The position numbers and the translations under genes were made by a program. The notes under the pieces were generated by a model. That model was not told the origin of the DNA, did not search any database, and worked only from the letters and a program-made list of their open reading frames with translations. From Cycas panzhihuaensis (Eukaryota; Plantae; Cycadophyta), in assembly GCA_023213395.1 (NCBI GenBank), contig CM041465.1, positions 124,069,741-124,133,740 of the forward strand: a DNA stretch of 64,000 bases. Direction: 5' to 3'. Shown piece after piece: positions 8,210 through 52,800 of the stretch (positions are counted from its first letter, which is position 1; every line of letters begins with the position of its first letter).

Positions 8210-9017
8210 CAAACCTTGAGCCATTAGGTACATTTTTTATCTTAAGTATATATCTCACCATTTTAGCAATGGTATAATTCTTACTTTTAGCTATATTATT
8301 TTGTTGTGACATATAAGATGTTGTTACTTGTTGTTTGATGCCATGGTTCTTACAAGAAGTAAACTCAGTAGATAGGTATTCGCCTCTATTATCACTCATC
8401 AAAATTTTGATCATCTTTTCAAAAAAGTTTTCTATCTTAGATTTGAACTTAAACTTTTTAAATGCTTTAAACTTATTTTTTAGAAGATAAATCCATGTCT
8501 TCTTAGTTAAGTCATTGATGAAGGTCATAAAGTATCTCACTTCTCTAAATGAAACTAGTATGATTGGTCTATATAGATTTGAGTATACCAAATCCAACAT
8601 AACAACATCAAGCTCTACTTTTAAATTTAGTTTAATTATACAACTTATAGAGAGTAAGTTATATTTGAAAGATGATATATACAACACATCAAAGATGTTG
8701 ATCTTATTACCAGATTTATTAAAAATAATTGTAAAATGGCTATTGATAACTCTATCTTCATCCATTTATAAAGACTTAAGGAGATTAAAGATTAATTAAT
8801 ACCTATTAATAAGAAAGCTAAGGACAAAGAAGTTCTGAGCATCATATTGAATAGCCTCCATGAAGGCTATCATATTTTTGTCACCAAATTGTGCCCAACA
8901 AAGAGATCATAACTTTTGACTTTTAAAAAATAAGTTAAACTTCTCTTATACAAAGGATAATACATGGGAAGATATATGAGTAACAGTAGTAGAATGGTAT
9001 TGACTTCTCAATTAAAA

Positions 9018-25123: not shown

Positions 25124-25471
25124 TCACGTCGATCCACTTGCCACACCTGAATCAGGCTGTTTTGTCACATCCTGCATCTTCAGCTCTTCTGGTTCGAGAC
25201 AAAAAGCTGAGGAATCTTGTCCAAGCTGGGCCATTTCATTGTCTCCAAAACCATAAGCAAAACCCTTGTTTGTAATGACAATTGTATGATACAAACCAGT
25301 GCTTACCTGACGCACATGATAGCCCTCTAAGGATTCAAGGACTTGGGGGCTTACAACCTTTTCTGACATGCCTTTATCCCAAAGCCCAAGGCTTCCCAAG
25401 CCCATCCATCCAAAAGCAAACATCAACCCCTCATCTGAAACGATAAATGTCTTCCTCTTTCTTGCACAAAC
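25124..25471 (-). CDS. Last coding exon of an RCC1-repeat / UVR8-like protein (resembles the Arabidopsis At3g15430 group)
   Basis: Acceptor tttag| then VCARKRKTFIVSDEGLMFAFGWMGLGSLG…VSTGLYHTIVITNKGFAYGFGDNEMAQLG, ending in stop TGA; typical RCC1 repeat motifs; intact frame. Confidence 0.93.
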   Translation of the reverse strand, partial: VCARKRKTFIVSDEGLMFAFGWMGLGSLGLWDKGMSEKVVSPQVLESLEGYHVRQVSTGLYHTIVITNKGFAYGFGDNEMAQLGQDSSAFCLEPEELKMQDVTKQPDSGVASGST

Positions 25472-25729: not shown

Positions 25730-27320
25730 CTACAATTTGGAACCAAAGCCATGCTATAAGTCTTCTTCAGGCATGCACACAGAAAAGCAACTCCACAATA
25801 AATAACAACAAATAAATTACTTGCAAGTAACCGTCATCAAAATATTCTTTGGGATTTTAGTCAATGAAGGCAAGAAATCTAGGGTTGCATGTGTGTACAT
25901 TATGGGTGGGTCACGCCAAGATGCAAGCAAACTGCAAGAGGCAGGTAAAGATATATTTTATGTCAAGATCAAAAATAGTATGAACAAGCAAAGTGTCTCT
26001 ACCATTGTCTCTAATAGGGAGCTGCAAGACACAGTTTGTCATATGAGTCTCATTATAAGAAAAGTTCTATTAAATGTCCCATGCTGAATGAGCAAAAGTA
26101 AACCAATGTGTTTTCAAAGAGGCTGCATAGAAGTACAATTGATACAGAGAATAATTGCTAGACATCAAGACTAACCTTAAAAAATGTGGATGTTTGTATG
26201 TAGAATAATTGGTTCCAGGACACTTGAAAATAATCAAGGACATTTCTAGGAACAATTATGAATATGATATAGCAAGAAAACAGTGGAAATCTAGTCAAAC
26301 AATGGTTCTGAAACAGTTTTGGTAAGCTTTTGGAATGCAAGGGACAGTTGCAAGTCAAGAAACACACTCTCGACGAACAGTTCTCAATAGACGTCAAAAC
26401 TGTTTTGGAACAGTTTTGAGACGATGGGATAGTTCTAGAACAACAAATGCTCCTCGGCATAGTTCTGTCAGACTCCAAAGAGGCATTTTGTACGGTTGTA
26501 CAAACATGCAAAGAGGCACTTGATTATCATTAATTAAGGCTCTGTGTTATGAAAAATTGAAGGATATGTTGTAAATCATGCTCTTTCAAATTATTGATTA
26601 TGTGCCCTTTCAAATTATTGACTATGTAAAAGAGCATAAATAGGTCACTTCTCTCATTGGTTCAACAGTGAGAGTCGAGTTAATTGATCATGAATCATTC
26701 ACTCTAGTGTGAGAGCCAAGTTAGTGAATTATATGGCATGTTTTCAACAGTGAGAGCCAAACAATTGAGTCTTGTGATTTGTTCTCAAGTGTGAGAGTCA
26801 AACACTAAAAGTGATGTAATGTTCTATGAGCATATTTAGTGCTAATTAATGAAATATATGAGTTACAAAGAAAGTCTTGTGCATTCTATGCGAATGATAA
26901 TTCATTGCTTATGCTGTGATTGATTATGTTGCATATGTCGTGAATGTTACAAAGTTGCTATATATGTTGCAAATAACCTAAGTGCAACCGACATCAAGTA
27001 GTAAAGAGAACATGTGGCAACTATGTTATCAAGCAATTTTGGGACATCGATGGACCGAGTAGTAGTCAACACTAGTTTTGTTGCTAAATTGTTAGAGTAG
27101 AAAAGAGCCTGAGAACTCAAAGGTAGTTAAGAGTGTATGATCAAAGATTAGAAGACCTAGGTCGTTGTCGTGATGCCAGTTTTTAACTAAACCATGGTAG
27201 TCAAGAGACCTTCTAATGCCACCTAAGAAGACTTCAAATAGGGGAACATCAAAGTCAAGTCGTTAGAGGGCAATATATTTGGCGAAAGAAAGAGAACTAA
27301 GGCAGGTGCATAAGAGAGGC

Positions 27321-27382
27321 ACATTGCCGAGAGGAAGGACTAATGAAAATTACATTGCCGAGAGGAAGGACTAATGAAAATT
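27321..27382 (+). repeat. Exact 31-bp tandem duplication in C gag
   Basis: ACATTGCCGAGAGGAAGGACTAATGAAAATT twice. Confidence 0.9.
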
Positions 27383-27602
27383 CCATTAAAATATTAGAAA
27401 GGAGTGGATTAGTAACACCCCAAGTAGCCGTGAGTGAAGTAGGCACTATGATAGAAGAAACTACACCTGACATATCTGACCTACAAGGGTTTCTAACAAG
27501 AAGTGAAGAATTTTATCTAGAGGAAAACCAGAGCAACGATAAAGAAGAGGAAGAATAAGGTCCCAAGGCAAATTTGGAAAACTATTTTACCAAAATACTA
27601 TT

Positions 27603-28442
27603 TGTTGGGATATATTTTGACACAATGGGCTATGTGGATACCAGAGATAGGCTATATGACCTTGGATGTCCAGGTACAAACCGTACAGAGGTACGCATGA
27701 GGCAGAAAAAGAGGAAAAACAACATTTTGGGTATGTATGACAGGTGCATACCTGAAAAGGTACGTAGCACAGTATACGTACTTTTAGTGGTATGCAAAGA
27801 GACGGAAAAGGTACACATGGCAGAACCTGACAGATGGATACCTGGGATGATGTCAAACATACGTACGGACGTACGGATGATTAAGACAGCAGTTAAGAAG
27901 ATTAACTAATGACTAACAAAGAGGTACGCTTATGGCTGAAAGGGTACGGTTATGACAGGGAGTCATAACCCTTCAGCCAAAGTACACCAAGAAGGCGCAT
28001 TTAAGGGACTTCACAAAGACCATTCCGATAGGGTGAGAGCCAAGTATTCAGACACTCAGCAATATGGTAGCCAGTACGTAGGCAAGCAACACAAAACAAT
28101 GTATAATGATGTGCACTTTTGAGGAATGCATATGACAGCAGCAGTGTATGTGGCTAGAATGCACAGGGAATGCATTCCAACACCTATTGTATAAAGACTT
28201 ATTGCTTAATAAAGGAAGAGTTACGTGGAAATGTGGATTCTATGTGTTTTATGAGAATTGGATGATGAATATATGTTGTTTATTGTATTGCTGTGTGTAA
28301 ACTGTGACATGATTGTATGGAATTATGAACAAATTTGTGTGATCTAAGTGTATGAACATGTTGACTGTATCCTAGACTAGACTACCAGTGATACCTTGAC
28401 AAGGGTACTTATCTCAATAGGGAGATAAACCCCAAGTCAACA
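27603..28442 (+). repeat. 5' LTR of D (840 bp)
   Basis: Direct repeat of 37355-38176. Confidence 0.97.
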
Positions 28443-28443
28443 T

Positions 28444-28456
28444 TGGTTCCGTTGCC
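28444..28456 (+). promoter_or_regulatory. PBS of D, tRNA-Asp-like
   Basis: TGGTTCCGTTGCC versus the Athila-type TGGCGCCGTTGCC. Confidence 0.75.
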
Positions 28457-28578
28457 TATGTCCATTGAGGAGGGACGAGGCCCAGGAGTTTCAGAAGGGG
28501 GAGAATGTGCAAAAGACAAAGGACCACAGGTCGTCGTGATGGCGGTAGAACTAAGCCTCCAACCTGTGGGACCTTCCA

Positions 28579-31555
28579 ATGCCACCTAAGAGGCCTTCGA
28601 AGGCGGGAGAGCACAAAATGATACTTCACCTAAGGGGAAAGAAACAAGTAGACAGAGAACATTACGATGGTCAAAAGAGTCAAAATTGAGAAGGGCAAGA
28701 AGACTAAGTTTGCATAATAACGAGACTAAGGGACAGTCCGTGGAAGAATCTGAGCCAAGTGGAGCCTAGACACCTCAGGAGCAAGGAGAGGGAAATAATG
28801 GCGAACAAATGGTATTAACACCAACCCCAATCAAGCATGACCTGTTTAGCCCAGAGAGGGAAGAAAAACCAAAAATGAATGAGGAAAATAAAAACGCCCT
28901 AGGGAAGGAGGAGAATACACCTGTGGAAGATACCCCGAAGAACCTAAGTGATAACGAGAAAAAGGCAAAGGAAGGTCCCTCGGCATATTGAGAAAGCAAG
29001 TTAACAAGGCAGCTATTTGAGGATTCGTCAGACACAGGGTCTGAGCAATCGTATATAGTCATCACACCGCTGACGGTACAAGTGCCAGGTGTGCTAGAAC
29101 CTATACACCTAAAGACGCCATTCAAGAATCCCCTATTTGGAAGGGATAGCATTGCAGTAAGCTCTCCGAACACACCACCTAAAGTGAAGGGTGAAGAGGA
29201 AGAAGTAGAATCCCTTGAGGAGGAAAAAGGCGAAGAATCACCACTAGGTGGAACACCAGTGTAGTCACCCAAGATGAACGACTACAGAGATTTTGGAAAA
29301 TTGATCTTTAATGACACCTCAAATGCATCAGAGCATGTATATTTGTTCCAAAACTTGATTGATGTAAAGAAAATCACAAATGAAGATGAAATAAAGGCCA
29401 GATTCGCTTGCACATTGAGGGGAGTACCATTGGCATGGTACAAGGAGTTGAATAAGAAGGAAACATGGGCCAACATAAAGAAGTCTTTTAAGAAAAGGTT
29501 TCAAAAGTTTCGAAGCAATGAAGCGGTAGAAATTGCCTTAAGGGAAATCAAACAAAGATCGGGAGAATCAATATTGACTTATATCAGCCGAATGAAAATC
29601 ATCGCTGCCAATATGATCAATGAGACAATGACAGACCACAACATGAAGAATTATTTTGTCAGAGGATTAAATGAAAAGTTGAGATCTATGATGCATGCAC
29701 ATCCATTGAAGACATTCAAGAACCCCCAGGATTTGGCACTAGATTTCGAAGCAGAAATGGATGCTCAAGCCAGAGGGCACGATCCCCTTCTACTGAGATT
29801 ACAACAGGAGATAAGGGAAATCTCAAGTAGAATCAGCATAATCGACCCTTCTATCAGGTGGGAGTCTTGGAAGAGGAATCAGAAGTGGAAGATTTGAGAA
29901 AAGAAGTAGCAAGATTAAAGATGAAAAATAACAGAGAAGAGGAAGCGGCAAAGAAAAAGAAGGACCGCGAATTTAAGGTTGAAAAGTGGCGCCACATCTG
30001 TGAAGAAAGTTCGCACACGACAAAGGAATGTGAAATTAATCCGAAGAATAGTGCAATGCACCAAAAGGACAAATGGTGCCACATATGTGATGTGGATAGT
30101 CATACAACAAAGGATTGTTTTTATAATCCTAGAGGAAGATCGTACAGAGGACGAGGCAGGGGAAGAGGAGGCAACCCACCACGGAATGTATACACAATGA
30201 GGAGTATACAAGAATCCTCGAGAAAGAAACAACCCATGGAGAGATGTCTCATATGTCTACAATTTGGACATTGGAAATCGGAATGCCCAACTAAGCGAGA
30301 GTACAAACAAAAACCGTTCGTATGCAACAATTGTGGGCCAAGTGAGCATAGAACGAAAGATTGCAAAGGGAAAGCCAAAGCCACCAATTTAATGATGATC
30401 ATACCAGAGAGTAGTAAAAATGTAAAACTCCAAAAGAAGCAAAAGGAGAACGCAAAAGAAGGGTATCCAAACCTACAAACCGAGATAAACCGATTCAGAC
30501 AAGCGAAGTAGATATTGGGAGAGTTAACCCAGACAGACGCCATGCTGCCAATGGGTAAACTAGAAACTAAACATGTGTACATAAGAAAAAATAAACAAAA
30601 GGAGAAAGAGAAAGTACCGAAGGAGCAAAAAAAGCTACCTCAAATGGTACAAATTCAGGAATTATTTAAAGGGTTACCAGCCAAGGACATTCCACGAATG
30701 TTGTTGTTGATGGAAAACTTGGTCAAACAATTACAACTAACGATCCCCCTATGTCAAGTAATAGATTGGATTAAGAGAGGAATATTACAACAACAAGGGA
30801 TTACCAAGAGTCTAAAGAAAGTAATGCCATCATTCGACATGGACCCAATGGTAACAATCACTATGTTGGGAGAACGATTCTCAAGGGTAATCGTGGATGG
30901 AGGAGCTACCGTGAATGTACTGCCAACCTCGACATGGCAGAAGTTGGGAAGCCCAAAGTTGGAGGCAGCAACTTATTCGTTGAAGCTAGCCAGTGAATTG
31001 TTGGTACGACCCGTGGGAAAACTTGCCAACATCAAGGTGGATGTGGCGGGAATTGTCGTTAAAATCGATTTCACCATTGTGGAGACAGAGAAGGGTGCAA
31101 CACCCTATTCAGCCTTATTGGGGAGACCTTGGTTATACAAAACACAATGTATCCAGAGTTGGAAAGATGTAACCTTCACATTGTTAGATGGAGGAAATGA
31201 AGTAGTATTACCAATGTTGGGAAAAAATTCGATCGAAGTAATACCCAATGACGGTTCAAGCATGACTATTGTGAGTGAAGCAACAGGATCTTCATTTGAC
31301 GAAGGAAATCTCTACCACACAGCCAAAGAACCAACCAAAATGATCGACCTCCAAGAAATAGAGCTGACTTACTTTGGAGAAATCTATAATTCTTCAGATG
31401 ATGAAAACGGGATGAAATTTGTGGACTATTGGTTGCAAGATGCTTATGAAGTTAATTCTCCTTCTCATAGGTGTAATTTACTATCTAAATATGTAACTGA
31501 AAACATTAACGATAATTCAAATTCTTTTGAGTATATGGCAACTAGCGGAGCATAG
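28579..31555 (+). pseudogene. Gag and aspartic protease of D
   Basis: MPPKR start; capsid domain (FACTLRGVPLAWY…TWANIKKSF); four CCHC knuckles; protease VIVDGGATVNV…LLGRPWL; a few stops and frameshifts. Confidence 0.92.
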
Positions 31556-31918
31556 CGTATAATACTGAGGAACTAATGATAGCCTAACCCTAGACCAAAA
31601 CCCCCTAGTATACCTAGTTTATTCCATAACTCTATAGTATCTAGTACTAATCCTAACTCCTCCTCTACCCTAGGCGTAGGTCCTAAGGTAGATTACCTAC
31701 CCCCCCTCCTATTACAACCTGGGGAAGGAAGTAGTAATCCTTCCTCATCCTCTTTAGAAGTATACCCACCCAGCAATCGGTCCCTTCCAACAATTGGTGC
31801 CAAACCCGAGGAAATGGAGGAGGAATCGGCAAAAAATACTTCTAGAGACTCAGGTCTAGGTAGTAGGATAACCATCCCAGAGGAGAGACACTTTGAAACT
31901 TACATTGGAGATTATGTT

Positions 31919-32400
31919 AAACCCTTCTATGGAGAGCAATTATACGGAACTACCCATCTAATCCATTACATAGAATATTGAATGGAGGAAGGGAACTGGG
32001 ACAAGAATTAGTGGCAGAAGGATCTAGTACTCACCTTACGAGGAACGGCCTGGTGTTGGTATTTAACCCACCAAGTTACCCTCCAGGGATGGAAAGAATT
32101 ACAAGCTGCATTTAGAGTATGATTCGACCACCCCAAACAACTAAACATTCCATTATTCCATGTAAGGAAATGCCGTAGCAAACATATTCAGAAATGTAAA
32201 CAAGAATGGACATCCTTAAGCATACCAAAGAAAACATGATCTAACCTCTTTTATCATACCCTAGGACAAGTGGCAAGGGATTAGTTCCTAGGAAGAGAAC
32301 AAAACCTAGATGTAACTTGGGGAAACCTTAAAAAATCTTTTATAAAAACTTTTATACATTCATCAGAAGATAAGGATATCAACAAAGTACTTAAGGGTAT
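31919..32400 (+). pseudogene. Two tandem Gag/capsid-like domains between protease and RT of D
   Basis: Manual translation in the PR/RT frame: PFYGE…HLIHYIEY…LVLTLRGTAWCWY…WKELQAAF and LF…HIQKCKQEW…LFYHTLGQVARD*F…TWGNLKKSFIKTF. Confidence 0.7.
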
Positions 32401-32407
32401 TAGGAGA

Positions 32408-35363
32408 ATGAGTATAAACCAAGAACAAGGAGCCATAACACCAATGAATAAAGAGAAGGAAGAATCAAAAACCAATGAAGGAGAAGAAATCCCTAGTTAT
32501 CCTGTGGAGTTTACTGAAATCAATGTTGGAGAAAGGAAAATAGAAGATACCCCTGCTCATAAAATAGGAGACAAAGAAGGTATCGAAGCAACCAAACTAA
32601 AAACAACCGAAATTAATGTGGGGAGTAAGGAGGAACCTAAAACAATACAAATCAGAGATTACTGGGACGATCAGACAATAGCTAAGGCCCAACAACTGTT
32701 TGAAGAATTTCGTGACGTATTCTCATGGTCATACAAGGATCTGAAGGGTATTCCCCCAGAAGTGGGAATGCATCACATCGACTTGATGGAAGGAGCAAAG
32801 CTAGTGAAACAAAGACCATATCGCATGAATCCTAAGTATAAAGAAAGAGTAAAAGCAGAGTTGGACAAAATGTTGGAGGCAAGGTATGTATATGAAATCG
32901 ACTACAGCGACTGGGTGAGCTCTGTAGTAGTGGTTCCCAAGAAGAATGGGAAAATATGCATTTGTGTGGACTACAGACAACTAAATAAGGTGACGAAGAA
33001 GGATCCCTTTCCGTTACCCTTTACAGAAGATATTTTGGAAGCTGTGGGAGGAAATGAGATATGTTCCTTCACCGACGGATTTAGTGGATATAACCAAGTG
33101 CAAATCGCTCTGGAAGATCAAGCGAAGACCACGTTTGTTACAGAATGGGGAACGTACGCCTACAGAGTGATGCCATTCGGTCTTACGAATGCTCTAGCCA
33201 CATTTCAGAGAATAGTAATCAATATATTTCGTAGAATGATTGGGGAAAAAGTGGCAGTATTTCTGGATGATTGGACATTATATGGGTTTATGAAAAACCA
33301 TATGGAAAACCTGAGGGAGATGTTGCAAATATGTCGGCAGAATAAGTTATGTTTGAATCCAGAAAAGTGTACCTTTTTGGTACCTTTGGGAATCTATTAG
33401 GACACATAGTAAGTAAAGAAGGATTGTTAACAGATCCAGCCAAAGTATCTGCAATCCTACATTTTCCGGTACCACTCACGAAGAGGCAATTGAAGGGATT
33501 CTTGGGACTAATTGGATATTATAGAAAATTCATTAGGGGGTACGCATGCATATCAAGACCTCTTGAGGAGTTGTTAAAGAAGAATGCTGAATGGGATTAG
33601 ACAGAAGAACAACAGCAAGCATTTGAAGCATTGAAGAAAGATATAATATCAGCACCTATACTACGGTTTCCCGATTGGAAGAAAATCTTCCATGTGCACG
33701 TCAATGCCTCGCAATACGCTATTGGATGCGTCTTGGCACAAACAAGTGATGAAAAAGTGGATTATCCGATATACTTTGCAAGATGGAAGCTCACGAAAGC
33801 ATAACAGAATTATACCACAATGGAAAAAGAAGCTCTCGGAATCATGTATGCATTGCAGAAATTCCAACACTGCCTGTTATCAAATCCATTCCTGTTCTTC
33901 ATCAACCATCAAGCACTCATGTACCTAGTAAATAAACCAATAATGAGGTGATAGATTAGCAGGTGGTTAATGTTATTTCAAGAATTCTCCTTTAAAATCA
34001 TTGTGAAACCAGGAAAAGCTCACATCATCCTCGACCAATTATCAAGAATTCCAAATGGGGAAAATGCTACAGGGGTGCCAGATAATTTTCTTAACGCTGC
34101 ATTATTCAGTGTAGAGGCAGTACCAACAAACTGGTATGAGGGAATACCAGAATACTTAGTAACTAGGGAGGTACCACCAGAATTAGACCACACAGAACAA
34201 CAGAATTCTGTGAGAAAAGCAGAGCCATACCAATTGATAAAAGGGGAGTTATACAAAGTAGGACCAGATGAGGTGTTACAGCGGTGCATCAGGCCACATG
34301 AGGTCAACCAAATTATGGCCCAAGCACATGAAGGCATAGCACGAGGACACATGGGGAAGTTAGCGACATGGAGGAAGATTTTGATGTCAGGATTTTGGTG
34401 GCCATCAATGTTCAAGGACGTAAGAAGGTGGATCCAAGCATGCGCCTATTGTCAAAGAGTTGGGAAACCTAATCGGTAAAATTTCCAACCCCTACACCCA
34501 ATCTTACTTCTAGCGCCGTTCGAAAAATGGGAGCTCGATTTCGTCGGACCAATCAAACCAACTGCCTGGTGATCCCAATCCTGATTTATCCTAGTGGCAT
34601 GACTAAATAGGTGGAAGCGAGGGCGTTAAGGAAAGCAAACTCAGAAAGTATAGCCCGATTTCTTTATGAAGTGATTATTACGAGATTTGGATGCCCTTTA
34701 GAAATTGTAAGTGATCAAGGGGCCCATTTTCTCAACCAAACCATAGAGGTGTTCACATCAACTTTCATGATAAGCCATAGGAAGTCCATGCCATACTACC
34801 CAAGGGCAAATGGGCAAGCAAAAAGCTCAAATAAGACTATCGAGAATTGTCTAAGGAAGATCTGCGACGTAGGAAGATCCAACTCAGCCGAGAAACTTCC
34901 ATCAGTATTATGGGCTTTCAGAACAACGTACAAAAAATCAACCAGGCAAACACCATTTTAGCTAGTCTATAGAACATAAGCCATCATTCCTAGAGAATTC
35001 GAGATACCAAGCCTGAGAACCGCTATGCAATGTTGCTTAGACGACTTCCACTCCTTACGACAGAGATTAGAAGAATTTGTGAGACTAGAAAAAAAGAGGT
35101 ATATGGCAAAATGGTTACAAAATATAGAAAAACAACGACAAAAGGCGTGGCACGATCAACACCTATGCAACCCACAGTTTAAGGAAGGTGACCAAGTCCT
35201 TCTCTACGACAGCAAGTTCAGAATGCACCCCGGCAAGCTTAAAATGAGATGGTTAGGACCTTATATTGCAGAACAAGTCTTTGAAAATGGGTCTGTACAA
35301 TTGCGGGAAATCGATGGACCATTGTTACCAACCCGAGTGAATGGTAGCCGACTGAAACTGTAG
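32408..35363 (+). pseudogene. RT-RNaseH-integrase of D
   Basis: CVDYRQLN, DGFSGYNQV, MPFGLTNA, FLDD; RH NYTTMEKE; H2C2 zinc finger; SDQGAHF; WLGPY. Confidence 0.96.
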
Positions 35364-35644
35364 GTCGATTAGAAGGAATTACCAGCCGGATCAGCTGGTT
35401 GTATCATACGTGTTGCATGACGTTGAGGCAAATTAGATTGCCTTGATACCGGAATATGATCCAGTTCGGTATGGAAGCATAAAATTACAAAAAAATCAAA
35501 AAACAAGAAAAAGAATTGAACTCATACCATATACATAAGCAATAGGAAAAATCATCAAAAGAAGGATATATCGTGATGAAAAGAATCAAGAATGAGATGG
35601 AATTCTGTCAAAGAAGCCAGATTTTTCACACATGTACCAACAAA

Positions 35645-35890
35645 ACACACTATACGTACCAGGAAAGTATGTTACCAGGTACGCACTATGTAAAATAAGC
35701 CAAAATACACTATACATACTAGAAAAGTACACCACCGGGTACGCACAGTTAAAAAAAGGTGAATAAGTCATTCAAAATACATTATACGTACCAAAAACGT
35801 ATGCTACTGGGTACGCACAGTTAAAAAAGTAAATAAGTTAATCAAATTATATTATATGTACCTTAAAAGTATGTTGTCGGGTACGCATAA
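35645..35890 (+). repeat. Four degenerate ~60-75-bp tandem repeats between pol and the extra ORF
   Basis: Recurring TATACGTACC…AAAGTATG…GGTACGCA unit. Confidence 0.8.
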
Positions 35891-36171
35891 GACAAAAGGC
35901 CGAATAAGACGAACATATATAGTATGTACCTGCAAGCATTCTCGCACAGTACACAACAGAGAAAGGAGGACCATTCGGCTCGAATTCTCAGCAGCAAATA
36001 GCCAAAAGGAACCCTTGTGACCCAGGGAAGCAGAAGGACAAAATTCAGCACAAGTTTTGATGAATGCTTCAAGAAAACAGTGACCATTCCGAAAAAGGTA
36101 CGTACGTAGGGTTCGTATTGGTACTCCTTGGTTTTTTCAGTCCTATTTCTGGAATCCCATAGCCCGTCATC

Positions 36172-37170
36172 ATGAGAAGAGCACGTTGCCAAGAGACCTT
36201 CCTGCCCAAGTTATGGAAAGAGCTAGAGACATTGCCTTCCCAATTTCAAATTAAAGTCAAGAAGGCAGGTTGGGAAGAATATATATACTGCAACCCTCTC
36301 TATTGTGACCAAGAGCTTATGGAAAGCATCTTATTAGAGCTTAAAAAGGATGTGAAGAAGATCAAACTAGACGCAGAAATAATTCACCTAATAATAGGAC
36401 TTCCAAACGTAGGAGAGGTTCCTATGGCCACTAAAAGGTCAGAAGTGGACCGTGAGACTTGGTTGAAGGGGTTTTGCCAAGAAAACACTCAACTGACCTC
36501 AGGAGGGATTTAGGTGGTTGATATAAAAGATGCCAGGTTACAATGGGTAGCCAAAGTTATCAATTCTAAATTTTTATCAAAAAGAAAGTACACATACATT
36601 CCAGGAGGAATGATGCCAGTATTACCAAAGATCCAGGATGGAGAAAAGTTGGATTGGTCAGAATTCTTAGCGGTAAACATGAGACGACAAATTCAAGAAG
36701 TAATGACACACCCTTTCTGTCACCCTTCCTTGTTGTTAGCTATCCTATTTTATCAATGTCTAGGTGTACAGCTAACAAAAACAACAATCTCTCCAAATGA
36801 ACCACTTATAAAGCAATGGATGACTAAGTTTCCAGACACTACTCAGGACCAGGAATTGAGAAAAAGGATTCAAAAGAAAATGACCAAAGTTCTTAAATGG
36901 CTACAACAAACCCCCAGAACACCCATTCCTCATCGTGCCAAACAAACAATCCAAAAAAGCAGTAAAAGGAAGAAAGATGAAGAAGAACCTGAAGAGGAGG
37001 AAGAAGTGGAGCCCTCATTGGAAGAATGGGCAGAATTCCCTCCTGTAATGGAAACAGGAGAAACATCAGCGCCTTCTCCGTCAGATAATAAATCATGACA
37101 AATTATCCAATTAATCAAAGAAATGGAAGAAGGGTACAAACTAGAGATAGTTGCTCTTCAGGAAAATTAA
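36172..37170 (+). pseudogene. Extra sense ORF downstream of integrase (Athila env-like / plant-transposon-protein type)
   Basis: ORFs 36172-36513 and 36514-37098 are contiguous in one frame across a single TAG. Motifs AEIIHLIIGLP and DWSEFLA, a hydrophobic LLLAILFY stretch, and an acidic/coiled-coil tail. Confidence 0.75.
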
Positions 37171-37354
37171 GGAAAAGGATGCGATAATAGCGACACTTAC
37201 CCAAATAAATGAAGAAATTTTGGCTACAAAGGACTCATTAGTAGGGCAAGGGCAGCAAGAGTAGCCCTAAGACAGAGAGGGGGAGGGTATCCCAAAATTT
37301 TAAAAATTTTGTTGAGCAAGGATGCTCAAACCCATCATCTTGACCCGGGATAGA

Positions 37355-38176
37355 TGTTGGGACATATTTTGACACAATGGGCTATGTGGATACCAGAGAT
37401 AGGCTGTATGACCTTGGATGTGCAGGTACGGACCGTACGGAGGTACGCATGAGGTAGAAAAAGAGGAAAAACAACATTCTGGGTACGTATGACAGGTGCG
37501 TACCTGAAAAGGTATGCAACACAATATACGTACTTCTGACAGTACGCAAGGAGACGGAAAAGGTACACATGGCAGAACCTGATAGATGGATACCTGGAAT
37601 GACGTCAAACGTACATACGGACATACGGATGATTAAGACAGTAGCTAAGAAGATTAACTAATGACTAACAAAGAGGTATGCTTATGGCTGAAAGGGTACG
37701 ATTATGACAGGGAGTCATAACCCTTCAGCCAAAGGACACCAAGAAGGTGCATTTATGGGACTTCACAAGGACCATTCCGGTAGGGTGAGAGCCAAGTATT
37801 CAGACACTCGGCAGTACGGTAGCTAGTACGTATGCAACCAGCACAAAGCAGTGTATAATGATGTGTACTTTCCGGGAATGCATATGATGAAGAAGTATGT
37901 GGCTAGAATGCACAGGGAATGCATTCTAGCACCTATTGTATAAAGACTTATTGCTTAACGTGGAAATGTGGATTCTATGTGTTTTATGAGAATTGGATGA
38001 TGAATATGTGATGTTTATTGTATTGTTGTGTGTAAACTGTGACATGATTATATGGAATTATGAACAAATCTCTGTGATCTAAGTGTATGAACATATTGAT
38101 TGTATCCTAGACTAGACTGCCAGTGATAGCTTGACAAGTGTACTTATCTCAATAGGGAGATAAACCCAAGTCAACA
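37355..38176 (+). repeat. 3' LTR of D (822 bp)
   Basis: Direct repeat of 27603-28442. Confidence 0.97.
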
Positions 38177-38755
38177 CTATTCAATACACCACTTGAACCA
38201 AGCGAGAGTTCATTTGTAATTAAAATGCCATTAGCAATTCAAATTCTAGAGGTAGAAGGAATTATTCAAGTGAAAGCCCCTGCAAGTGATTCGCTATTCA
38301 AGAAGGAAGAGACAACACCAAAGGAAGGATTGTCACCCAAAGTTAACATAACAAGAGGAAGCATATTGACACCAAGGACACCTCTCAAGATGGCATACCC
38401 TCGATATCATAACGAAAGTGCATTCAACTATCTATTATTCAATGGGGTTACAGATGTAACAGAGCATTTGTACCTATTTAAGAACATGATTGAAGTAAGA
38501 AACATTACTAATGAGAAGGATATCAAAGGAAGATTTCTTTGCGCACTGAGTGGAGTGTTGTTGATGTGGTATAAAGAACTAGATGCAGCTACAAAAGCTT
38601 GGCAAATAATTTGTGATGCCTTCCAAGAGAGATTTTAGAAGTTACAAAGCAATGAGGCCATCTTGCAAGCAGTAGAGAATCTTAAGCAATGGTTAAGGGA
38701 ATCAATATTGGACTACTCAAGTCATATGTCTATTGTAGCCGCCAATATTACTAGT

Positions 38756-41700
38756 TGTTGGTACACATTTTGTTTATAAGTGTCACTATGTTATGACCAC
38801 AATATGTTCATAAGTGTCAATGTGTTATAAGAATGTTATTAATATCTCATGTAATATGTTGATAGATGGTCAGTTGTGAAAGGTTGTTACAATGGGTCAT
38901 CATATGTCGTATATTAAGAGAGTCAAGAACATCTTTGGGACCAGGGTTGGCTGTCAGGATTATAAGCCACTTTTTATGTTACAAGTCTTAGCACATGGTC
39001 TAGGTGTGAAACTAGTACTAGATGATCATCTGCTTAGGTCCATCTTGTGCTTGGTATTGTACATATTTTGATATAATCATAAGAGTATATATTGATGGTA
39101 CACTAATATATGTGAATGATTGTACCTATTAATTACTTCTCTCTGTTAGTAGTTGGATATTTGTACATATGGTTGAATAATGATGTTGCATTACAGAACC
39201 TCTCTATCCCTTTCTTCCTAGAAGAACCGGGAATAGTTAATCAACATCTGGCATCATTATCAATCTAGGAATGAGGTGGTTTAAGGAACGATCAAAATAA
39301 ATGATGATCTTGAATCCAAACATACAACTTGCCTTGTTGGATGATTTGATATTGATCCATATAACTAAAGAAGATTTTGAAGCTATAAGAAGAACAAAAA
39401 AATTCTTGCTACGACATGATATTGTTAGATATTATATGGATGACATTGTGGTAATACGACTGGAAGTACTCGCCAACATTCTACATCATGACAAGTTTTA
39501 AGTAATGCCCGGTTCAAGCATATAGAACGATCTCCGCACATTTTTAAGAAAAATGATGGAAAGTCGGATCATCAACAACAATTGAGACAATCTACAAGAA
39601 CCACAACATGCATTGCTGCTCAACAAAAAGATCGTTCACTAAATTAAAGAAATTGGGTGATTATAGATCATGTATGACAAATGTTGAGAAGATGGGAACA
39701 AAAACATGGACGAGATCAAGAATTGAAGGAGATCACAGATGCATTTGCACGATGAAGTCTCTAAGGACGTAGAATAGGAAGTACAAGTGATTAGTTATTT
39801 ACTATAGATGCCATCAAACAAAATTGCAAAATAAAGACAAGCCCTAGAGAAGGAAAATAGGGTCGATCCCCATTTGGAAAATTCTACGAACAACGACATG
39901 CTAATCACAAAGACACTAATCACAAACACGAAGACGAATTTAGACAATGAAGGCTCTTGCAATTAAGTTGAGCAAAATCTCAACTTAAACCAATCATGGC
40001 AACTCCTAAAGGTGGCAAGTAAAAACGACCAATATTCAACACAAACACAAATGAGGATCTAACATGTCACTACAACATGTCCGAAATGATCTAGATTGCA
40101 AATGGAGAAGCAGATAAGGACCACTGCCTTCAAGTTTTTCTAGCGACATGATATAGAAAATGAGTGGTACAAAGAGTTTGAAGAAGGTTATTTCACGAAA
40201 TGGAGTGACTTACACAATGCATTTGAAAAAGAAATTAGACTTCTACGAGACGATAGCAAGATGGTAGATCAGATATACAATTTAAAATAAGAAGCTAAAC
40301 AAACCATCATGAGTTCCAACACCAAATTAAAAAGCTTAGTCAAGAAAATAGAAAATGAAAAAGATGGTTTTTAAAAGGTATACTTCCAAAATATAGATGA
40401 ATACTTCTAGTGGTTCCACCTGCATCCTATCAAGAAGCAGTTGATTGAGCAATGAGTTTAGAAATAGAGAACAAGGCAGAATCATGGCATCAAATAAAAG
40501 TTTCTAAAAATGATAATAAGGAATAATCTTCTATTGAGTCATTACAGGAAGATTTGATGAAGATGATGAAAGACTTAACATGACAGCCTAAGGAGCGCTA
40601 ACAAGTGTGGTGCACCAAGTGCAAAATAAAGGGGCACATGGAAATGGAATGTCCAAAAACCTAGGAACTCAAATATTGTCGTATATGTAAAATGAGTAAC
40701 CATAATATAGACGAATGTGGATTTAATATTTGAGCATGAAGGCGATACGATCAAGACGCATTTCTAGCAAAGCGAGAACCCAATAGACCCTTTGGATGTG
40801 GGTAAGGAGGAAATTTTGGACATGGGCCTCGACAACTAGTACCAAGGGATTCCCAAGGACATCCCATGGTTCAATGTTTCAAATGTAAATTATGGGGGCA
40901 TTTCAACAGAGATTACCCAAATAAGGAAAATATTACAACTATGACCTTGTGTCGTTAGTGTGGTCTGGGGGATCATGACAATGATCACTGTATTCAACAG
41001 CAAAACAAATTTGTGAGTCGGGTTGAAATTGAGGGGTTGAAGACTCTCAATGACAAAACTCTTCCAGCTTATGTCATGTATGTAAGGAGAGTGAAGAAAC
41101 AAGAATATCCAAACCCTCAGGAGGAAAAAATTCGTGTTCAAGAAGCTAGGAATATGATCAAGTCCATACAAACACAACAACAACAAACAATCGAGACTAC
41201 ACTTTTGACAGAACAATCAAGAGAACTACACATTCTAACCAAAAGCAACCAACGCAAAGGGTTTATCAAACATCGGCTACAACAAGTGCACTAGTAGATC
41301 AACTCCTACAAATGGAAGTTCCAATAAAGGTAGCAACTTTATTGTTATATGATCCAACTATCATACATACTATGATGACCCGAGTATAAGAGATACTTGA
41401 GAGAAATGAGCAAACCATGATGAACTAAAATTAGGTGGAGGAAAAAGAGCAATTACGAAGACAAATGATCATAGCAGAAGATTTTCATACTGGCAAACTC
41501 ATGGGAAATAACCCCAATGTGGACAATCCTCACGATGAACAACATGTTAAAACTATCGAAGTTGACCAAGATACAGAATTGACTATGCAAATGCTTGGAT
41601 GCAGTTTAGAACATATAGTGATGAACGAAGGAGTTGGGAGTTAACATCATACCAATAACCACTTGGAAGAGGTTGTGATAACTAACCTTGGGGCCACCAC

Positions 41701-44663: not shown

Positions 44664-47328
44664 TGAAATTAGGACTGCTCCATATAGTCACATTTTCAAA
44701 ATTTTGTTTTCTCTCAACTTTTTCCTAATGGCTTCAATCTATGCATTCCTGAATAGGAAAAGTTGACTATAGTTAATTTTAGCACATGGAAAGGAAAAAT
44801 ATAAGAAATACTATTCGCAAAAGGAGCTTGGGAGCAAACTAGAATGTCCTACCAAGACCACCTAGAGATGTTGAAGTTAAAGAATTTGATGAATGTGATC
44901 ATTATGCCCTTGTTGCAATTACTCTTTGCTACGGATCATGTATTCCCATACATCATCCACGCTAACTCTACTCACGAAGCTTGGAGTATTTTGTCTTCTC
45001 TTTATGCACAAGAGAATGTAGTTAGGGTTATTTTCCTAAAAGAAGGATTGTACAAAGAGAAAATGTCATCAAATGAAAGCGTAATTAGTTTTCTCACTAG
45101 GTTAAAAAGCCTACGTGAGAATCTAGCAGTTGCAAGAATTAAGGTAGATGGGCAAGAATTAGTACAACTGGTACTAAGAAAGCTTCCCAAGTCATATGAA
45201 AACTTTACCACCACTATATCTCTCTCTCTCCTAGTATAAAAAACATGTCTTTTGATGTCATGTGTGGTTAGTTGCTTTAATTTAAACAAAGAAAGAAAAA
45301 CTATGAAGAATCTAACTTGGAAAATACCTTTGCTTCAAAAGCCAAAATTTATGAAAGGATAGTTCAATCTCAACCTAGATGGGGGTCTGTAGGGAAAAAC
45401 AAAGGAAGGGCTCAAAGAAATGCACATCCTGTTTCCAAAAACCCATCCCAAAGAATAACGTGCTTCTATTGTGGGAAACTAGGATATTTTGTAAGAGACT
45501 GCAAGTATAGGAAAGCAGACATTGCTTGAGGGTAAAAGGCAATAGGAAACTTCAATGGAGAAAAAGAATAAGAGGAAGGTGATACTGAAGAAACAACATT
45601 CATAGCAGCTTTATCTACCAAGATCTCATCTCAAAGCAATTGGTACATAGACTAGGGAGCCTCCAAACACATGACTCCAAACATGACTAATTCAAGAAGA
45701 TCAACAAGGACAGAACTAAGGTTGTAGTTGAGCTTGGAGACAACACTACTCACCCCATCCAAGGAAAAGGCACAGTACTAGTAACGATTGATGGAGAAAT
45801 TAAAAAGGTTGCCAATGTTTTATATGTACCACAGACGAAAAAGAATCTCCTTTTTATATTTCAGATGACTAAAAGGAATCTTAAGGTCACTTTTGAAGGT
45901 AATGAATGCCGCATCAAAAATAAAAATAAAGAAATCATAGGAAAAGGAGTAGAAGAAAATGGGCTCTATAAATTTGTAGCTACTCCTACAACTACAACTC
46001 CTCAAGCCCTCTTTGTAAATATTAATCATAAGAGTGAAATATGGCATTTAAGGTATGGGCATCTCTCTTATAATTACTTGTCTCAGCTAGAAACACACAA
46101 TATGGTAGAAGGTCTTCCTTCCATTAAAAGATCTTAATTAATTTGTGAAGGTTGCATGCTTGGAAAGCAACATCGGCAAAGATTTCATCTGATCTCCTGG
46201 CGATCTCAGAACAAGCTTGAGCTTATTCACAATGATATCTATGGCCCTACTAGTCTAGTTTTAATAGGACAATCCAAGTACTATTTGACATTTATAGATG
46301 ATTGCATGAGGAAAATTTGGATCTACTTCCTCAAAAACAAATATGAACCATTTCATATCTTTAAGGAATTCAAAGCCCGGGTTGAAAAGGAGAGGAAAAG
46401 AAAGATTAGGATCCTAGAGCCCTCCTCAATGGAAGCAACACTTCAAATATATATTGGACAAAAGCCATTAACACAGGTGCTTATCTTCTCAATAGGAGTC
46501 CCCCTATAGCCTTGGAAGAGATAACTCTTGAAGAAGCTTGGATAGGTAGAAAACCAAAGATGACACCTTTGATGAGTCTCTGTCCAATAATTTAGTTCAG
46601 AAATCAGAATCCTCCCCATTCTACTCAGTGGATAAAGAAGAAATTGTAAAAAACTATAATTTTGAAATTCAAGCAAAAGAAGATCAAGCAGGTACTCAAG
46701 AAGCCACATCCAGCAGACAAGGTAGTTCAGTAGATGGACAACATAGTACAACAAGGAAAGTGCCTAAATGGTATGTTGAGACTCTACAAGATTCAGAAAT
46801 CCAAAATATTAAAGATTTAGAAAGAGGAAGGACTAGAAATCAAGTCCAACATTCTCTCCTATGTAACACTAAGCCTGTAACTTATGAAGAAGCTAGTACA
46901 AATAAAAACTAGGTACAAGCCATGGACAAAGAAATCAACATAATCGAAAGGAATAATGCCTAGGATCTAGTTCCACCACCACCAAATAAACCCATTATAG
47001 GATGTAAACGAGTCTTCAAAGCAAAAGAAGAGGCAAATGGAACTATTGAGAAACACGAGGCTTGACTAGTTGGCCAAGGCTATACCCAAACCAAAGGAAT
47101 AAACTATGACGAGACTTTTGCTCCCGTAGAAAAAATGATCATCATCAAAACTATCCTAGCTACTATTATACAACATGGGTGGAAAGTGTACCATATGGAC
47201 GTTAAAGGGGCATTCCTAAATAGTAACCTATCTAAAGAGGTTTTTACATGGAACAGTCACCTAGTTACATAATGGATGGAGAAGAGCACTTGGTGTGTAA
47301 ATTAAGAAAGGTCCTATATGGGCTAAGA

Positions 47329-47907: not shown

Positions 47908-49809
47908 AAAAGCTCCAAGATCCTAGTATAACAAGATAGACCAACATCTAAAACAATGTGGATTCTTGAGATGTGGAGCTAATCCAGGTCTTTATATACA
48001 CAAAATAACAAATGAAAAAATAACCATAATTGTTGTGTATGTAGATGATCTCCTCATCACTAGATACAACATAGGAAGAATATCAGAAATAAAACACATC
48101 ATGAGCACATCCTTTGAGATGACGGATTTGGGGTTGTTTCACTACTACCTAGGAGTGGAGGTGGATCAATAGCAATTTTTTTTTTTTTGTCGCAAACAAA
48201 TATGTCAAAAGACTATTGTATAACTTCGACATGGAAGATTATAAGCTAGTAGCTACACCAATGGAAACAAGGAGCAAATCTACTATAGATAATAAAGGGA
48301 AACCAGTAAATTAAACCTTATATGGAAGGTCAACCGATAAATAAAATCTTATTTAACTTACAACAAACAGACATGATATTGTATATGTTGTTTGAATAAT
48401 TTCTAGGTACATGACAACTCCCAAAGAGATTCACTAAAAAATGGCTAGAAGAATACTTAGATATATCAAAGGAACCCTCAATTTAGGGTTACAATATTCA
48501 AAAGCTCAAGTAGTCAAATTGATTAGATACATAGATTTTGATTGGGTAGGAGAAGTCAATGACAAAAAATCCATTACTACGTACTATTTCAGCCTAGGCA
48601 TAGGGACCATCTCATGGTGCAACAAAAAACAACCAACTATTGCATTGTCCTCAACAAAAGTTGAATACAAGGTTGTTGTGAGCACCTCTTGTGAAGCCAT
48701 CCGGCTTAAAAGGATGTTGGAAAAATTAAATTAGTCACAATCTTCTCCAATTCCAATATACCATGACGACCAGAGTGCAATCAATGACAAAAAACCCTAT
48801 TTTTCATGCCAAGACAATGTATCGAAGTTCATCATCATTTTATTCAAAGAAGGGTTCATCAAAAGGAAATAGAACTAGTATACTACCCAAGTGAAGAAGA
48901 ATTAGCAGATATCTTCACCAAGGCACTAGGGAAACAGAAATTTCAGCATCTCAAGCAATAGATTGGGGTAGGATTGAGGGAATAAACATTATGGGGGGTT
49001 GTTAGAGATAATGTTTATCCCGATGTATATAACTTATGTCCACAGGATTATAACTTATGTTTTTATCTTAGCTGATTAAGGGTTATGTGTCCTTTCCCCT
49101 TGTTATGCATGTAGGACACTTGTCACTCATGCAGAAGGTCTTCTCTTATATTTATGCACATTCTCTCAATGGATTAATCAATGAATTATTACTCATTCTA
49201 TCTTCATATTGCTCAGAATTCAGCTAATGGAGAAGAAATTGTCCCTATGAAAAGGCAAGGCAAGAAGGTAAACATATGTGCAAAAGATGTGGGCCAAGTA
49301 ATCATGATTCTCAGAATTGTCCACTAACAACAAAGATATATAACTTAGCTACTATAGTTTGGGATGAACCATAAACACACAATGTTAATTACTAAATAAA
49401 GGCTAGAAAAGACAAGAATAAGGATCCGTCCAATTTTGACAACCTAAAAGTGGAGAAAGATTTCATTAAGCAAAAGCAACACTACACGAAGTTACTAAGA
49501 ACATCTAACTAAATAAACCAATCGATTCAAGACCTCTATTATCCAAGTATATAAGAGGGGAGCATCTCATTTGAAAAGCACCCCAACAATGTTTGAAGCA
49601 AACATTATGTCAATAGGAGAAAAGTTAGAAGTCTTAAAGTGTTTTGCAAAATAGCTTGGGTTGGCCACACCATTATCCATAACGTTTGAATTATGGAAAT
49701 TCAATCTATATGGGAAGAAACCAATTGACCATCAAAAATCCCTTAAACATGTATGTCCAATGGTTGATGGTGCTATCAAAGTTGATATGAGGATATGCAA
49801 TAAAACACG

Positions 49810-52800
49810 TATTGAGAATGGGACATTAAGCCTATGGCCTTTAGAATCTAAACGAGAGGAAAGATTGCTATGAGAATGAAGATGATTAGCATCTAATCAA
49901 GCTAGCATGGAGATGAGCACTATGAGCAAGCATAAGCATGAGGGCACAAAATATGGAGGAGAAGGAATTGATTCAACTCTAAATAAATAAGAAGCTGATA
50001 TTAACCAAGAACAACAGCATAACACAATAACACTCAGTCTTGTAAAATACATGAAGAATTGTCTCAATATATAGAGACTCAGGAGTGTTGCATGTTTGAC
50101 GAATGTCAAACATACAAGCATGCTAGTTGCACATGGGACAAGTGTCCCTTAAAGCTCTCTTGTGAACATAAGTTCATGAGGGTACATTAACCCTCAAGTT
50201 ACAACCTTCTGCAACTAAAAATAAAGTAGGTGCGTACTTTATCACTTTAAGTGATAAGTCCCACTAACATAAAGTACATTAATAAAACATTACAAAGTAC
50301 ATCACTTAACATTTAAACATAAAGGTTTAACAATGCCCCCACCCCCCCCCCCCTCTTAATGTTTACAATGTTAAGTCAGACACCAAGACCATCTCTGGAT
50401 TTCTCAAACTTCTCTCTACCAAGTGACTTGGTAAAGATATATGCAATCTGTTGGTCTATGGGCCTAAAGAAATGTTGATCTCACTGTTCTAAACATGCTC
50501 CCTAATACAATGGTGATGAACCTCAATGCGCTTGGTCTATGCATGAAAAATTGGATTCTTGGTTAACTTGAGCACACTTTGATTGTTGCAATAGAGGCTA
50601 ATGGGGTGATCCTACTTAAGTCCAAGCTCTCCAAGAATCTGCCTTAGCCAAATAGCCTCACAAGTTGCACTGACTGCAACTTTTTACTTAGCTTCTATGG
50701 ATGACAAGGTAACATTGGGTTGCTTCTTACAACTCCACGAAATGACTCCTAAACCAAGGGTGAAAAAGTATCCCGAGGTCAATCTGCAACTATCTTAGCA
50801 ACCTGCCCAATCAAAATTCGAGAACTCCTCCAAAATGAAGTTCTCATTATGAGTATATTGAAGGCCATGTTGCAATATGCCTTTGATGTATCTTAGTATA
50901 TGCTTTATTGCATTCAATGTTTCTGATTAGGCTGAGACATATATCTGGAACAAATTCCAACTGCAAATGAAATATCTAGTTTAGTGTTGGTGAGGTAGAT
51001 TAGGCTACCCAGTAGTTGCCGGTATAATGTAGGATTTGTTGGTTCTACTTCCTCATCAAGTGATAACTGAGTGCCATTCTCCATAGGTGTTGGAGATGGT
51101 TCATAGTCCTCCATTCTGAAAGGCTGCAAAATGTCCCAAGAATACTTTGCTTGGTAAATGAAAATATGACCTGGCTGCTACCATACCTCCATGCTTAAAA
51201 ACTAATGGAGGAGTCCAAGATCAGTCATCTCAAAGCTCCTCTTAAGATCATCTTGGAGAATCTAAATCATCTTAGTGTCATTCCCTGTGATCACTAAGTC
51301 ATCAACATACAACACGACAAGGACAACATGGTTCTCCTTAACTTTTATATACAAGTTGGGATTTGATGTGGATCAATGATATCCATGTCTCAAAATATAG
51401 TCATTGATTTTAGAGTACCATGCTCTTGGGGCATGTTTTAAGCCATACAAAACCTTCTTGAGGTGACAGACCGAATGTTCTTTACCTTGTTCAATATAAC
51501 TAGGAGGTTGCTCCAAATATACCTCCTCTTAAAGATCGTCGTTGAGAAAGGTGCTCTTCACATCCATTTGGTAGATTAGCCACTTGCATTGATCAGCTAA
51601 GGCCAATATGAGTCTAATGGTATTCATGTTTGTGATTGGTGCAAAGGTCTCCTCATAACCAATGACTTCTTTTTCTATAAAATTCTTTGCAACAACTTGA
51701 ACCTTATGATGCTTGATTGAACCATCAGAGCGGAATTTGGTTTTATAAACCCATTTGCAACTGATTGCCTCTTTGTTTTTAGGCAATTTCACCAAATCCT
51801 ATGTTCCATTCTTTTCAATAGAATGGATTTCTTCATCCATGGAAGCTTTCCACTTTTCACTTTTATATGCCTCCTCAAAAGTGGAAGGCTCGTCAACACA
51901 AAGCACTTCATTCACAAGTGCATAGTTTATTTGTTGTCTCATCTTTGATGGACGTTTTCCTTCTATGATCTGACTATCCCATATTGTCTTTGTATACCAT
52001 TTGAGTAACTTCTTTATAGAAGTAGCTTCAACCTCAATATGCTCTTGCTGTAAAGGTTGATCAAATGAAGAAGTGTTAGGGTCAAGTGGAACTGAATTTG
52101 AATAGATGGAGACAAAGTAGAAGCAACAAGAACAGAAGATGTACATGGTGTAGATGATTGTGAGGGAAGAAAATCCTCAACAACCTTTTTACCTTTTTCA
52201 TTGGGAGATTGGATGGATGCAGATTCCAACTGCTCATTATCTTCAACAAAGATTACATCTCTAAAAAGATGCATTTTCTTAGTAGTGGGATCATATATCC
52301 TATATGCTTTATTGTGAATAGCATAGCCAACAAAAATACATTTGAGACTATTTTTATCTAACTTGGTTCTTTGTTGATGGGGAATATGCATATAAGAAGT
52401 ACACCCAAAAGTCATTGAATTGCTAACTATTAGCTTTCTGCCAAACCAAGCCTCCTCTAGTGTGATGTCGGTGACTGTTGTAGTTGGACTCCTGTTTACC
52501 ACATAGATTACTGTGTGGAATGCTTCTACCCAATAGGAATGAGGTAGCCCTTTTACATGCATTATTGCTTTGGCTTTATTAGCCAAAGTCCTATTCATCT
52601 GGTCAGAAACTCCATTCTACTATAGTGTGTGAGGAGTAGTGAGTTGTCGCCTGATCCCATGAGCCTTGCAAAATTGATTGAATTCCCTTGAGGTAAATTT
52701 ACCTCCATTATTTGATCTCAAGATTTCGATTGAGTATCCAGATTCATTTTCCACCTCTAGTTTGAATTCTTTAAATTTTTTAAATACCTCTAATTTTTGC

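Follow-up and report, generated by a model that had tools for sequence, protein, structure and literature searches.

What are two capsid-like segments doing between a retrotransposon's protease and its reverse transcriptase? The question arises from a 64,000-nucleotide stretch of the cycad Cycas panzhihuaensis (assembly GCA_023213395.1, contig CM041465.1, positions 124,069,741 to 124,133,740 of the forward strand; hereafter the window), which holds an LTR (long terminal repeat) element of the Ty3/gypsy type at 27603-38176. To our knowledge, retroelements are taken to carry one capsid domain, within Gag. The Pol of this element contains, between protease (PR) and reverse transcriptase (RT), two lobes that resemble the N-terminal domain (NTD) of the capsid (CA), and we hold with high confidence that the pair lies in frame, is present throughout the family, is of the NTD type, evolves under purifying selection and is of old origin. 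A more tentative answer to the question, and the best we can offer, is that the N-terminal lobe of the capsid was duplicated long ago, giving the fixed order CA-NC-PR-(CA-NTD)-(CA-NTD)-RT-RH-IN (NC, nucleocapsid; RH, RNase H; IN, integrase) in an old plant Ty3/gypsy lineage, in which the lobes may tether RT-RH-IN to the Gag shell.

A first-pass annotation had placed the open reading frames (ORFs) at 29858, 30515 and 32408 in a common frame and had read two capsid-like repeats from the gap between PR and RT. The common frame was confirmed and includes position 31535; a single frame at 29831-33400 carries the zinc knuckles, PR, the lobe segment and RT; the peptides quoted for the gap are present as stated, and the element's own Gag capsid motif, which they were said to mirror, is located in ORF 29265-29897. 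The capsid origin of both repeats also stood, but each corresponds to an N-terminal lobe and not to a whole capsid domain:

31892..32128, plus strand: extra capsid lobe 1, CA-NTD type, with stops at 31979, 32009 and 32120 in the window copy
32141..32407, plus strand: extra capsid lobe 2, of the CA-NTD type and extended by the helix that trails the NTD in Gag, with stops at 32237 and 32282 in the window copy

When the window sequence was translated with X at stop codons, PF03732 recognized lobe 2 (24.9 bits, the cut-off being 24.1; E 2.5e-5). Pfam gave no match for lobe 1 on its own, which is tied to PF03732 only through the Ginkgo protein P0004, whose lobe 1 it matches (pairwise E 1e-9, 33% over 67 aa) and which itself matches PF03732 (E 1.6e-5); its match to the element's own Gag is weak (pairwise E 0.042). 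Pfam scans gave no RNase H match in the lobe segment. Word-based protein searches with the window segment found nothing among 52 longer-protein and 432 near-length candidates, and neither direct scans with the segment in metagenome contigs nor scans of viral contigs gave a confirmed match.

Distant relatives provided the rows for the profile comparisons. An HMMER search over 1.84 billion representative proteins (E 0.001) returned four matches, namely a repetitive Candida protein, a protein of Ginkgo biloba that carries both lobes, and two others; the Candida protein (P0003), although the top match (E 1.8e-21), was rejected as an artefact. P0010, a cluster mate of one of the two others, has lobe 2 fused to the start of RT, and P0011, from a profile search, reads lobe-lobe-linker-RT-RH in a single ORF. 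Three Ginkgo gene models, P0004, P0007 and P0008 (Gb_07360, Gb_36189 and Gb_13097), are short and consist of an acidic leader and the lobe pair without RT; they are probably mis-called element fragments, and possibly domesticated.

The profile-profile comparison, made with the window and Ginkgo rows removed, assigned both lobes to the NTD. The Gag NTD profile matched lobe 2 with a probability of 94.6 and lobe 1 with 70.2, whereas the Gag C-terminal domain (CTD) profile gave 0.19 for both and reversed profiles gave 0.07-0.3; 30 column shuffles peaked at 18.3 and 22.4, against real scores of 29.3 and 43.7. A hidden Markov model (HMM) built from the relatives alone finds lobe 2 of the window (E 3.6e-12), and 5 of the 21 alignment members match PF03732 at E 0.05 or better. 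The profiles of lobe 1 and lobe 2 match each other only weakly without the window and Ginkgo rows (probability 1.1, against 42.4 with them). Since NTD and CTD have a common fold (PMC6525542), the NTD assignment rests on these sequence comparisons. Sequence profiles found nothing in the PDB at E 10.

For the fold itself, the P0011 segment, modelled from a 21-row alignment, yielded two four-helix lobes and a final helix (pLDDT 78.9). Compared with 48,161 solved chains, this model ranked retroviral, retrotransposon or Arc capsid lobes in all of places 1-30, including those of Arc, PEG10, PNMA2, copia, Ty1, Ty3 and retroviruses. The best values were Z 8.8 for lobe 2 (rmsd 1.5, 62 aligned) and Z 7.8 for lobe 1 (rmsd 2.4, 71 aligned), and the first unrelated chain followed at Z 5.5. 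The ESM Atlas entries for P0011 all scored below 0.9 (best 0.89) and fell in retrotransposon gag clusters, which serves as a lead only. We infer from the model that the lobes fold as four-helix CA lobes.

Is the segment a peculiarity of this one copy? Sequencing runs, represented by their assembled contigs, indicate that it is not. Whole or in part, the lobe stretch occurs in 20 of the 22 listed runs (12 studies), and contigs cover it in all eight runs examined (eight organisms, seven studies), so that a one-off insertion does not account for it. Across 29200-33500 all 30 bins were covered in 4/4 runs, and across 31480-32130 four further runs covered 30, 30, 30 and 27 of 30 bins. The copy number of the family is very high. 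Among the positions listed, another letter replaces the stop at 31981 in 98-100% of depth (8 runs), and in four runs each this holds for 72-100% of depth at 32009, 98-100% at 32239 and 88-100% at 32283; four of the five lobe stops are thus not common to most other copies. The earlier remark that all stops are one transition away from CAR, CGA or TGG has no weight, as any stop codon fits. In lobe 2, at 32214-32222, a minor contig class in 4/4 runs carries a one-base insertion and a deletion eight bases apart, and the frame is kept.

The stops at 31553-31582, for which a family consensus had been proposed to see whether they are sense codons elsewhere, are not simple point changes, because copies align poorly over this stretch and differ by small indels; contig depth falls near zero at 31546-31567 when other copies are aligned to the window. 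Coverage was pieced together from separate contigs, none of which bridges the whole stretch, and the frame over 31545-31605 in the window's family is thus only presumed to be continuous.

More distant loci show the same layout. Two N-terminal patterns of RT, used to seed a scan, retrieved 29 metagenome loci (L012 duplicates L005, L019 duplicates L018 and L024 duplicates L022), of which 15, two of them duplicates, have PR upstream of RT. At least one lobe lies between PR and RT in 15/15, with lobe 1 in 12 and lobe 2 in 12 by tblastn with P0011; HMMs made from the same loci, and hence partly circular, find lobe 1 in 15/15 and lobe 2 in 13/15. Six further loci with lobes are cut or rearranged, and eight (L013, L015-17, L023, L026-28), in which neither PR nor a linker precedes RT, were excluded as uninformative, although L026 does have lobes elsewhere, on the opposite strand. 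L001, L006, L010, L018, L020 and L022 align with L008 from PR through both lobes without a shift. An insertion of about 12 residues separates lobes 1 and 2 in L025:11-568, which indicates that the inter-lobe link can vary.

These relatives also bear on the suggestion that the segment is a separate ORF initiated at the ATG at 31535. They have PR, lobes and RT in one frame and no such leader: the low-complexity stretch of about 130 codons that precedes lobe 1 in the window is missing, lobe 1 follows the PR linker directly, and there is no conserved Met ahead of it. The suggestion therefore finds no support. Because gag-PR frameshifts occur at differing positions in the relatives, and L005 is without any, the relatives seem, from their sequences, to have a single Gag-Pol ORF.

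Selection on the lobes is purifying. The proportion of nonsynonymous differences was below that of synonymous differences (pN < pS) in 91/91 pairs for lobe 1 and 105/105 for lobe 2, most pairs being saturated. Four non-overlapping, less saturated pairs gave nonsynonymous to synonymous rate ratios (dN/dS) of 0.32 [0.22-0.46] and 0.35 [0.25-0.48], against 0.67-1.05 in shifted lobe frames and with PR at 0.16 and RT at 0.14 for comparison, values that alignment by protein similarity lowers and post-insertion decay raises. In-frame stops numbered 27 in 1117 and 32 in 1332 codons, compared with 71-109 off frame. These figures speak against the neutral evolution that the first-pass annotation had named as one outcome. 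Removal as an intron, which it named alongside, left no sign either: the segment keeps the frame, selection on it is purifying, and no joint skipping from PR to RT occurs among those listed for the contigs of the 8 runs. Across families with RTs that are about 50-70% identical, both lobes have a fixed length and keep their Trp/His/Phe cores, and the aromatic fold-defining residues are retained while overall identity drops to linker level.

The lobes group by position. A tree of 40 rows sets the three apart, each on its own side of a branch (support 64/34 for lobe 1, 89/73 for lobe 2 and 88/84 for Gag), no shuffle came that low, and the window lobes score higher with their positional counterparts from other families than with their own Gag. 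This argues that the duplication predates these families. It also speaks against a chimera of two gag genes, which had been offered as an alternative: a second CTD, zinc knuckle or protease is missing, and the lobes cluster by position and not with their own Gag.

The element that carries the lobes is 10.6 kb long, with both LTRs, a target-site duplication (TSD) and a primer binding site (PBS), and the copy is dead. A Pfam scan of the internal region gave the domain order gag-PR-RT-RH-INT typical of Ty3/gypsy. Besides the two lobes, its features are:

27598-27602 and 38177-38181: target-site duplication CTATT, flanking the element
27603..28442, plus strand: 5' LTR (TG...CA), about 840 nt, 90% identical to the 3' LTR (K2P 0.091)
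28444..28456, plus strand: primer binding site, from its sequence, immediately after the 5' LTR
28579..29276, plus strand: Gag N-terminal region, long and P/E/S-rich, the reading interrupted by stops and a frameshift
29277..29753, plus strand: Gag capsid (PF03732 E 1.8e-13, PF19259 E 2.6e-8, own HMMs)
about 29280-29525 and about 29529-29753, plus strand: the CA-NTD and the CA-CTD of Gag, in that order (own HMMs)
29980..30360, plus strand: zinc-knuckle (nucleocapsid) region
30854..31135, plus strand: aspartic protease (PF13975/PF13650 E 2e-4)
31136..31891, plus strand: post-PR linker, with an acidic/Trp part conserved to about 31480 and then an N/P/S/E-rich low-complexity part of about 130 codons
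32408..32600, plus strand: acidic linker from lobe 2 to RT
32600..33987, plus strand: reverse transcriptase and native RNase H (PF00078 E 1.3e-21, PF17919 E 7.4e-29), with a frameshift near 33385
34297..35363, plus strand: integrase, broken (PF17921, PF00665)
36163..37098, plus strand: extra ORF between integrase and the 3' LTR, with one internal stop
37355..38176, plus strand: 3' LTR, about 822 nt

In the window copy the Gag capsid is out of the PR frame, with a frameshift near 29850, one in-frame TAG (30509-30511) separates the zinc knuckles from PR, and the post-PR linker is broken at 31553-31582. The nucleocapsid region has four knuckles of two kinds flanking an RG-rich run, two that are Cx2Cx3Hx4C-like with a W-C-H-I-C start and then CCHC types. 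The ORF at 36163-37098 (about 310 codons; the front looks helical and the tail is acidic/basic) matched no Pfam family at E < 0.03, and tblastn showed no counterpart of it among the 29 related loci. The 3' non-coding region holds, at 35641-35898, four imperfect direct repeats, each about 56 nt long and spaced 60-72 nt. A six-frame Pfam scan of the internal region of this decayed copy found neither an aRH domain nor a chromodomain.

The element sits inside a related element, within its gag (flanks 27160-27602 and 38182-38800); the 5' flank is similar to the beginning of the inserted element's own gag, and the 3' flank encodes a capsid 44% identical to the element's own (tblastn E 2e-30). Elsewhere in the window, two related Ty1/copia elements with LTR-like repeats in common lie in tandem at 49800-62800 on the minus strand; more pieces of copia occupy 44800-46500, and a piece of integrase lies at 8118-8765. 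An RCC1-repeat coding piece at 25124-25471 on the minus strand (PF25390 E 2.5e-15) may be an exon from a host gene with these elements in its introns.

How does the element compare with known systems? The PBS looks tRNA-Glu-like, which would differ from those given for Athila; no tRNA genes were found within the 64-kb window. For Athila, REXdb names tRNA-Asp (72%), Asn or Ala (PMC6317226; this and the following comparisons draw on parts of the cited papers). By the REXdb description the element resembles the Athila type in its 5-bp TSD, its GAG-PROT-RT-RH-INT order, its mostly single-ORF layout, the lack of aRH and chromodomain and the extra ORF near the 3' end; its 10.6 kb falls within the 7.3-22.8 kb of Athila, and a single-stop GAG:PROT layout, to which the TAG at 30509-30511 corresponds, is found in 12% of intact Athila (PMC6317226). 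It is nevertheless not filed as a canonical Athila, because the available REXdb text lists no extra polyprotein domain for this group, whereas the window element has two CA-NTD lobes between PROT and RT.

Additional cargo at or near the PR-RT junction has precedents (further examples in PMC13468544 and PMC10508981). TatI/TatII 'copia-like' elements of club mosses and gymnosperms have an extra folded domain there (PMC6317226, PMC13468544), but their cargo is aRH, whereas that of the window element is capsid-derived and no aRH was seen in six frames. Ogre elements also have additional sequence at this junction (PMC6317226), as the first-pass annotation had stated; it is a non-coding spliced intron of about 274 bp, while the window segment is coding and selected, and Ogre has an aRH between RH and INT where none was found in the window element. 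KnitGypsy-Dnmt3 of Klebsormidium likewise has an accessory domain under purifying selection in a Gypsy Pol ORF (PMC5890265), although that domain is a captured host enzyme and the window lobes derive, by duplication, from the gag of the element itself. In fold, the lobes resemble Ty3 CA and Arc, dArc, PEG10 and PNMA in having two four-helix, SCAN-type CA lobes in tandem (PMC6525542; PDB 7r1z, 6s7x, 4x3h, 6r22); a normal CA, however, is an NTD and a CTD inside Gag, whereas the window lobes are both NTD-type by profile and lie inside Pol. The restriction factors Ty1 p22/p18 and Drt2 are also element-encoded half-capsids that could act on Gag assembly (PMC4599808, PMC8458377), but they are CTD-based and made apart from Pol, in contrast to the NTD-based, duplicated and RT-fused lobes described here.

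What could such lobes do? In the Ty3 particle, as described in the parts of the structural study used here, the NTDs form the outer capsomers, the CTDs form an inner layer that links them, and the repeating unit of the outer layer is an NTD pair in two orientations (PMC6525542). By analogy, the lobe pair would be unable to build a lattice alone, because the CTD that links Ty3 capsomers is missing. The lobes could instead fill NTD places in a capsomer, with RT pointing inward at the usual position of the CTD, and RT-RH-IN would remain held once it has been released from Gag by the protease. Two covalently joined NTDs could also mimic the two-orientation NTD pair of Ty3. A bolder form of the tether, which is possible but which we consider doubtful, is that an old gymnosperm-type lineage builds its particles from two capsid subunits, Gag CA and a Pol-borne NTD-NTD pair that occupies two adjacent capsomer places, with RT-RH-IN just under the shell and a gap in the CTD layer. 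If true, the two-subunit particle would be a new way for a retroelement to package and position Pol.

Several observations weigh against the reading of the lobes as an old capsid-derived tether. A single-ORF Pol seems already to enter the particle on Gag and would need no second tag, and half of the intact Athila in REXdb are single-ORF with no extra domain listed in the text at hand (PMC6317226). The lobes evolve at twice the rate of Gag CA, with median identities of 0.33 and 0.31 against 0.54 and 0.57 (21 pairs), and this fast evolution counts against a tight lattice role; the dN/dS values of the flanking linkers (0.29 and 0.32) equal those of the lobes. The lobe-1 group in the tree is weak (64/34) and the HMM of the relatives' lobe 1 misses that of the window, so the window and Ginkgo lobe 1 may be non-orthologous to the others. 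L004 and L011, both decayed copies, are without most or all of lobe 2. Structure prediction, which the first-pass annotation had proposed for the window peptide, gave a homologue model that resembles capsid lobes, but the model of the window segment itself is too poor (pLDDT 46). Foldseek found nothing at E 0.001 in PDB and BFVD (best 1.6, Arc), and Z values near 8 are middling for helical bundles and not decisive alone; the structural support therefore rests on the uniform ranking and its agreement with the sequence comparisons.

The Arc N-lobe binds peptides, as the titles of structure entries also state. An alternative to the tether, which we regard as unlikely though worth keeping in view, is that the lobes are a peptide-binding adaptor of this kind, which would bind short motifs in host proteins or in the disordered tail of Gag and would chaperone, localise or time the RT-IN precursor outside the lattice. 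Among solved structures the Arc N-lobe region matches best (Z 8.8), the N-lobe with a Stargazin peptide (4x3h) reaches Z 7.2, and the retention of fold-defining aromatics at linker-level identity would suit a binding module. Arc may, however, rank first simply as the nearest solved NTD of the Ty3/gypsy type, rows within 1 Z being tied, and the putative adaptor has no known ligand.

The rapid divergence of the lobes relative to Gag CA would also be expected of a decoy or modulator that, once released by the protease, absorbs capsid-recognising host factors, poisons the shells of competitors, limits the element's own copy number or triggers uncoating. The NTD is the host-exposed layer in Ty3 (PMC6525542), and Ty1 offers a precedent in p22/p18, which is a Gag half (PMC4599808, PMC8458377). 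We think such a role improbable. The very high copy number of the family fits self-restriction badly, Ty1 p22 is, according to the parts of those papers used here, CTD-based and has a transcript of its own, the dN/dS values lie well below 1, and the protease cleavage is putative.

It is more improbable still that the lobes have lost any capsid-related role and persist as a folded spacer, or as a solubility or processing element between PR and RT, selected only to stay open and folded. Lobe dN/dS and identity are no better than those of the linkers, and related elements tolerate cargo at the junction (aRH in TatI/II, the intron of Ogre; PMC6317226, in the parts available), but two domains of fixed length with conserved Trp/His/Phe cores are kept across the families, and a mere spacer should often be lost, whereas 15/15 informative loci keep at least one lobe. 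A non-coding relic, whether a one-off nested gag insertion, a two-gag chimera, a spliced Ogre-like intron or a separate ORF at ATG 31535, has in its favour the window-copy stops at 31553-31582 and the lack of a contig bridging the stretch, and is a very remote prospect, already largely refuted by the family-wide occurrence, the frame, the purifying selection, the positional grouping and the lack of a listed PR-RT-skipping joint.

The proposed tether aside, the arrangement itself is real and old, and apparently undescribed. No published description of a second capsid module in Pol was found, including in texts on a loblolly pine repeat, on orchid AlkB and in an accessory-domain review, each available in part, while subscription papers, Repbase reports and the large supplements of REXdb could mention one. 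For annotation, a second gag match between PR and RT should not be taken for a nested insertion. Pol has retained a duplicated lobe pair across families with RTs only about 50-70% identical, and in Ginkgo, which provides a handle on the open question of how RT and integrase are packaged and retained in single-ORF elements and on what isolated capsid lobes are able to do. The arrangement also offers a natural route to free CA-NTD lobes such as those in Arc-like genes, and the Ginkgo gene models may be such pieces.

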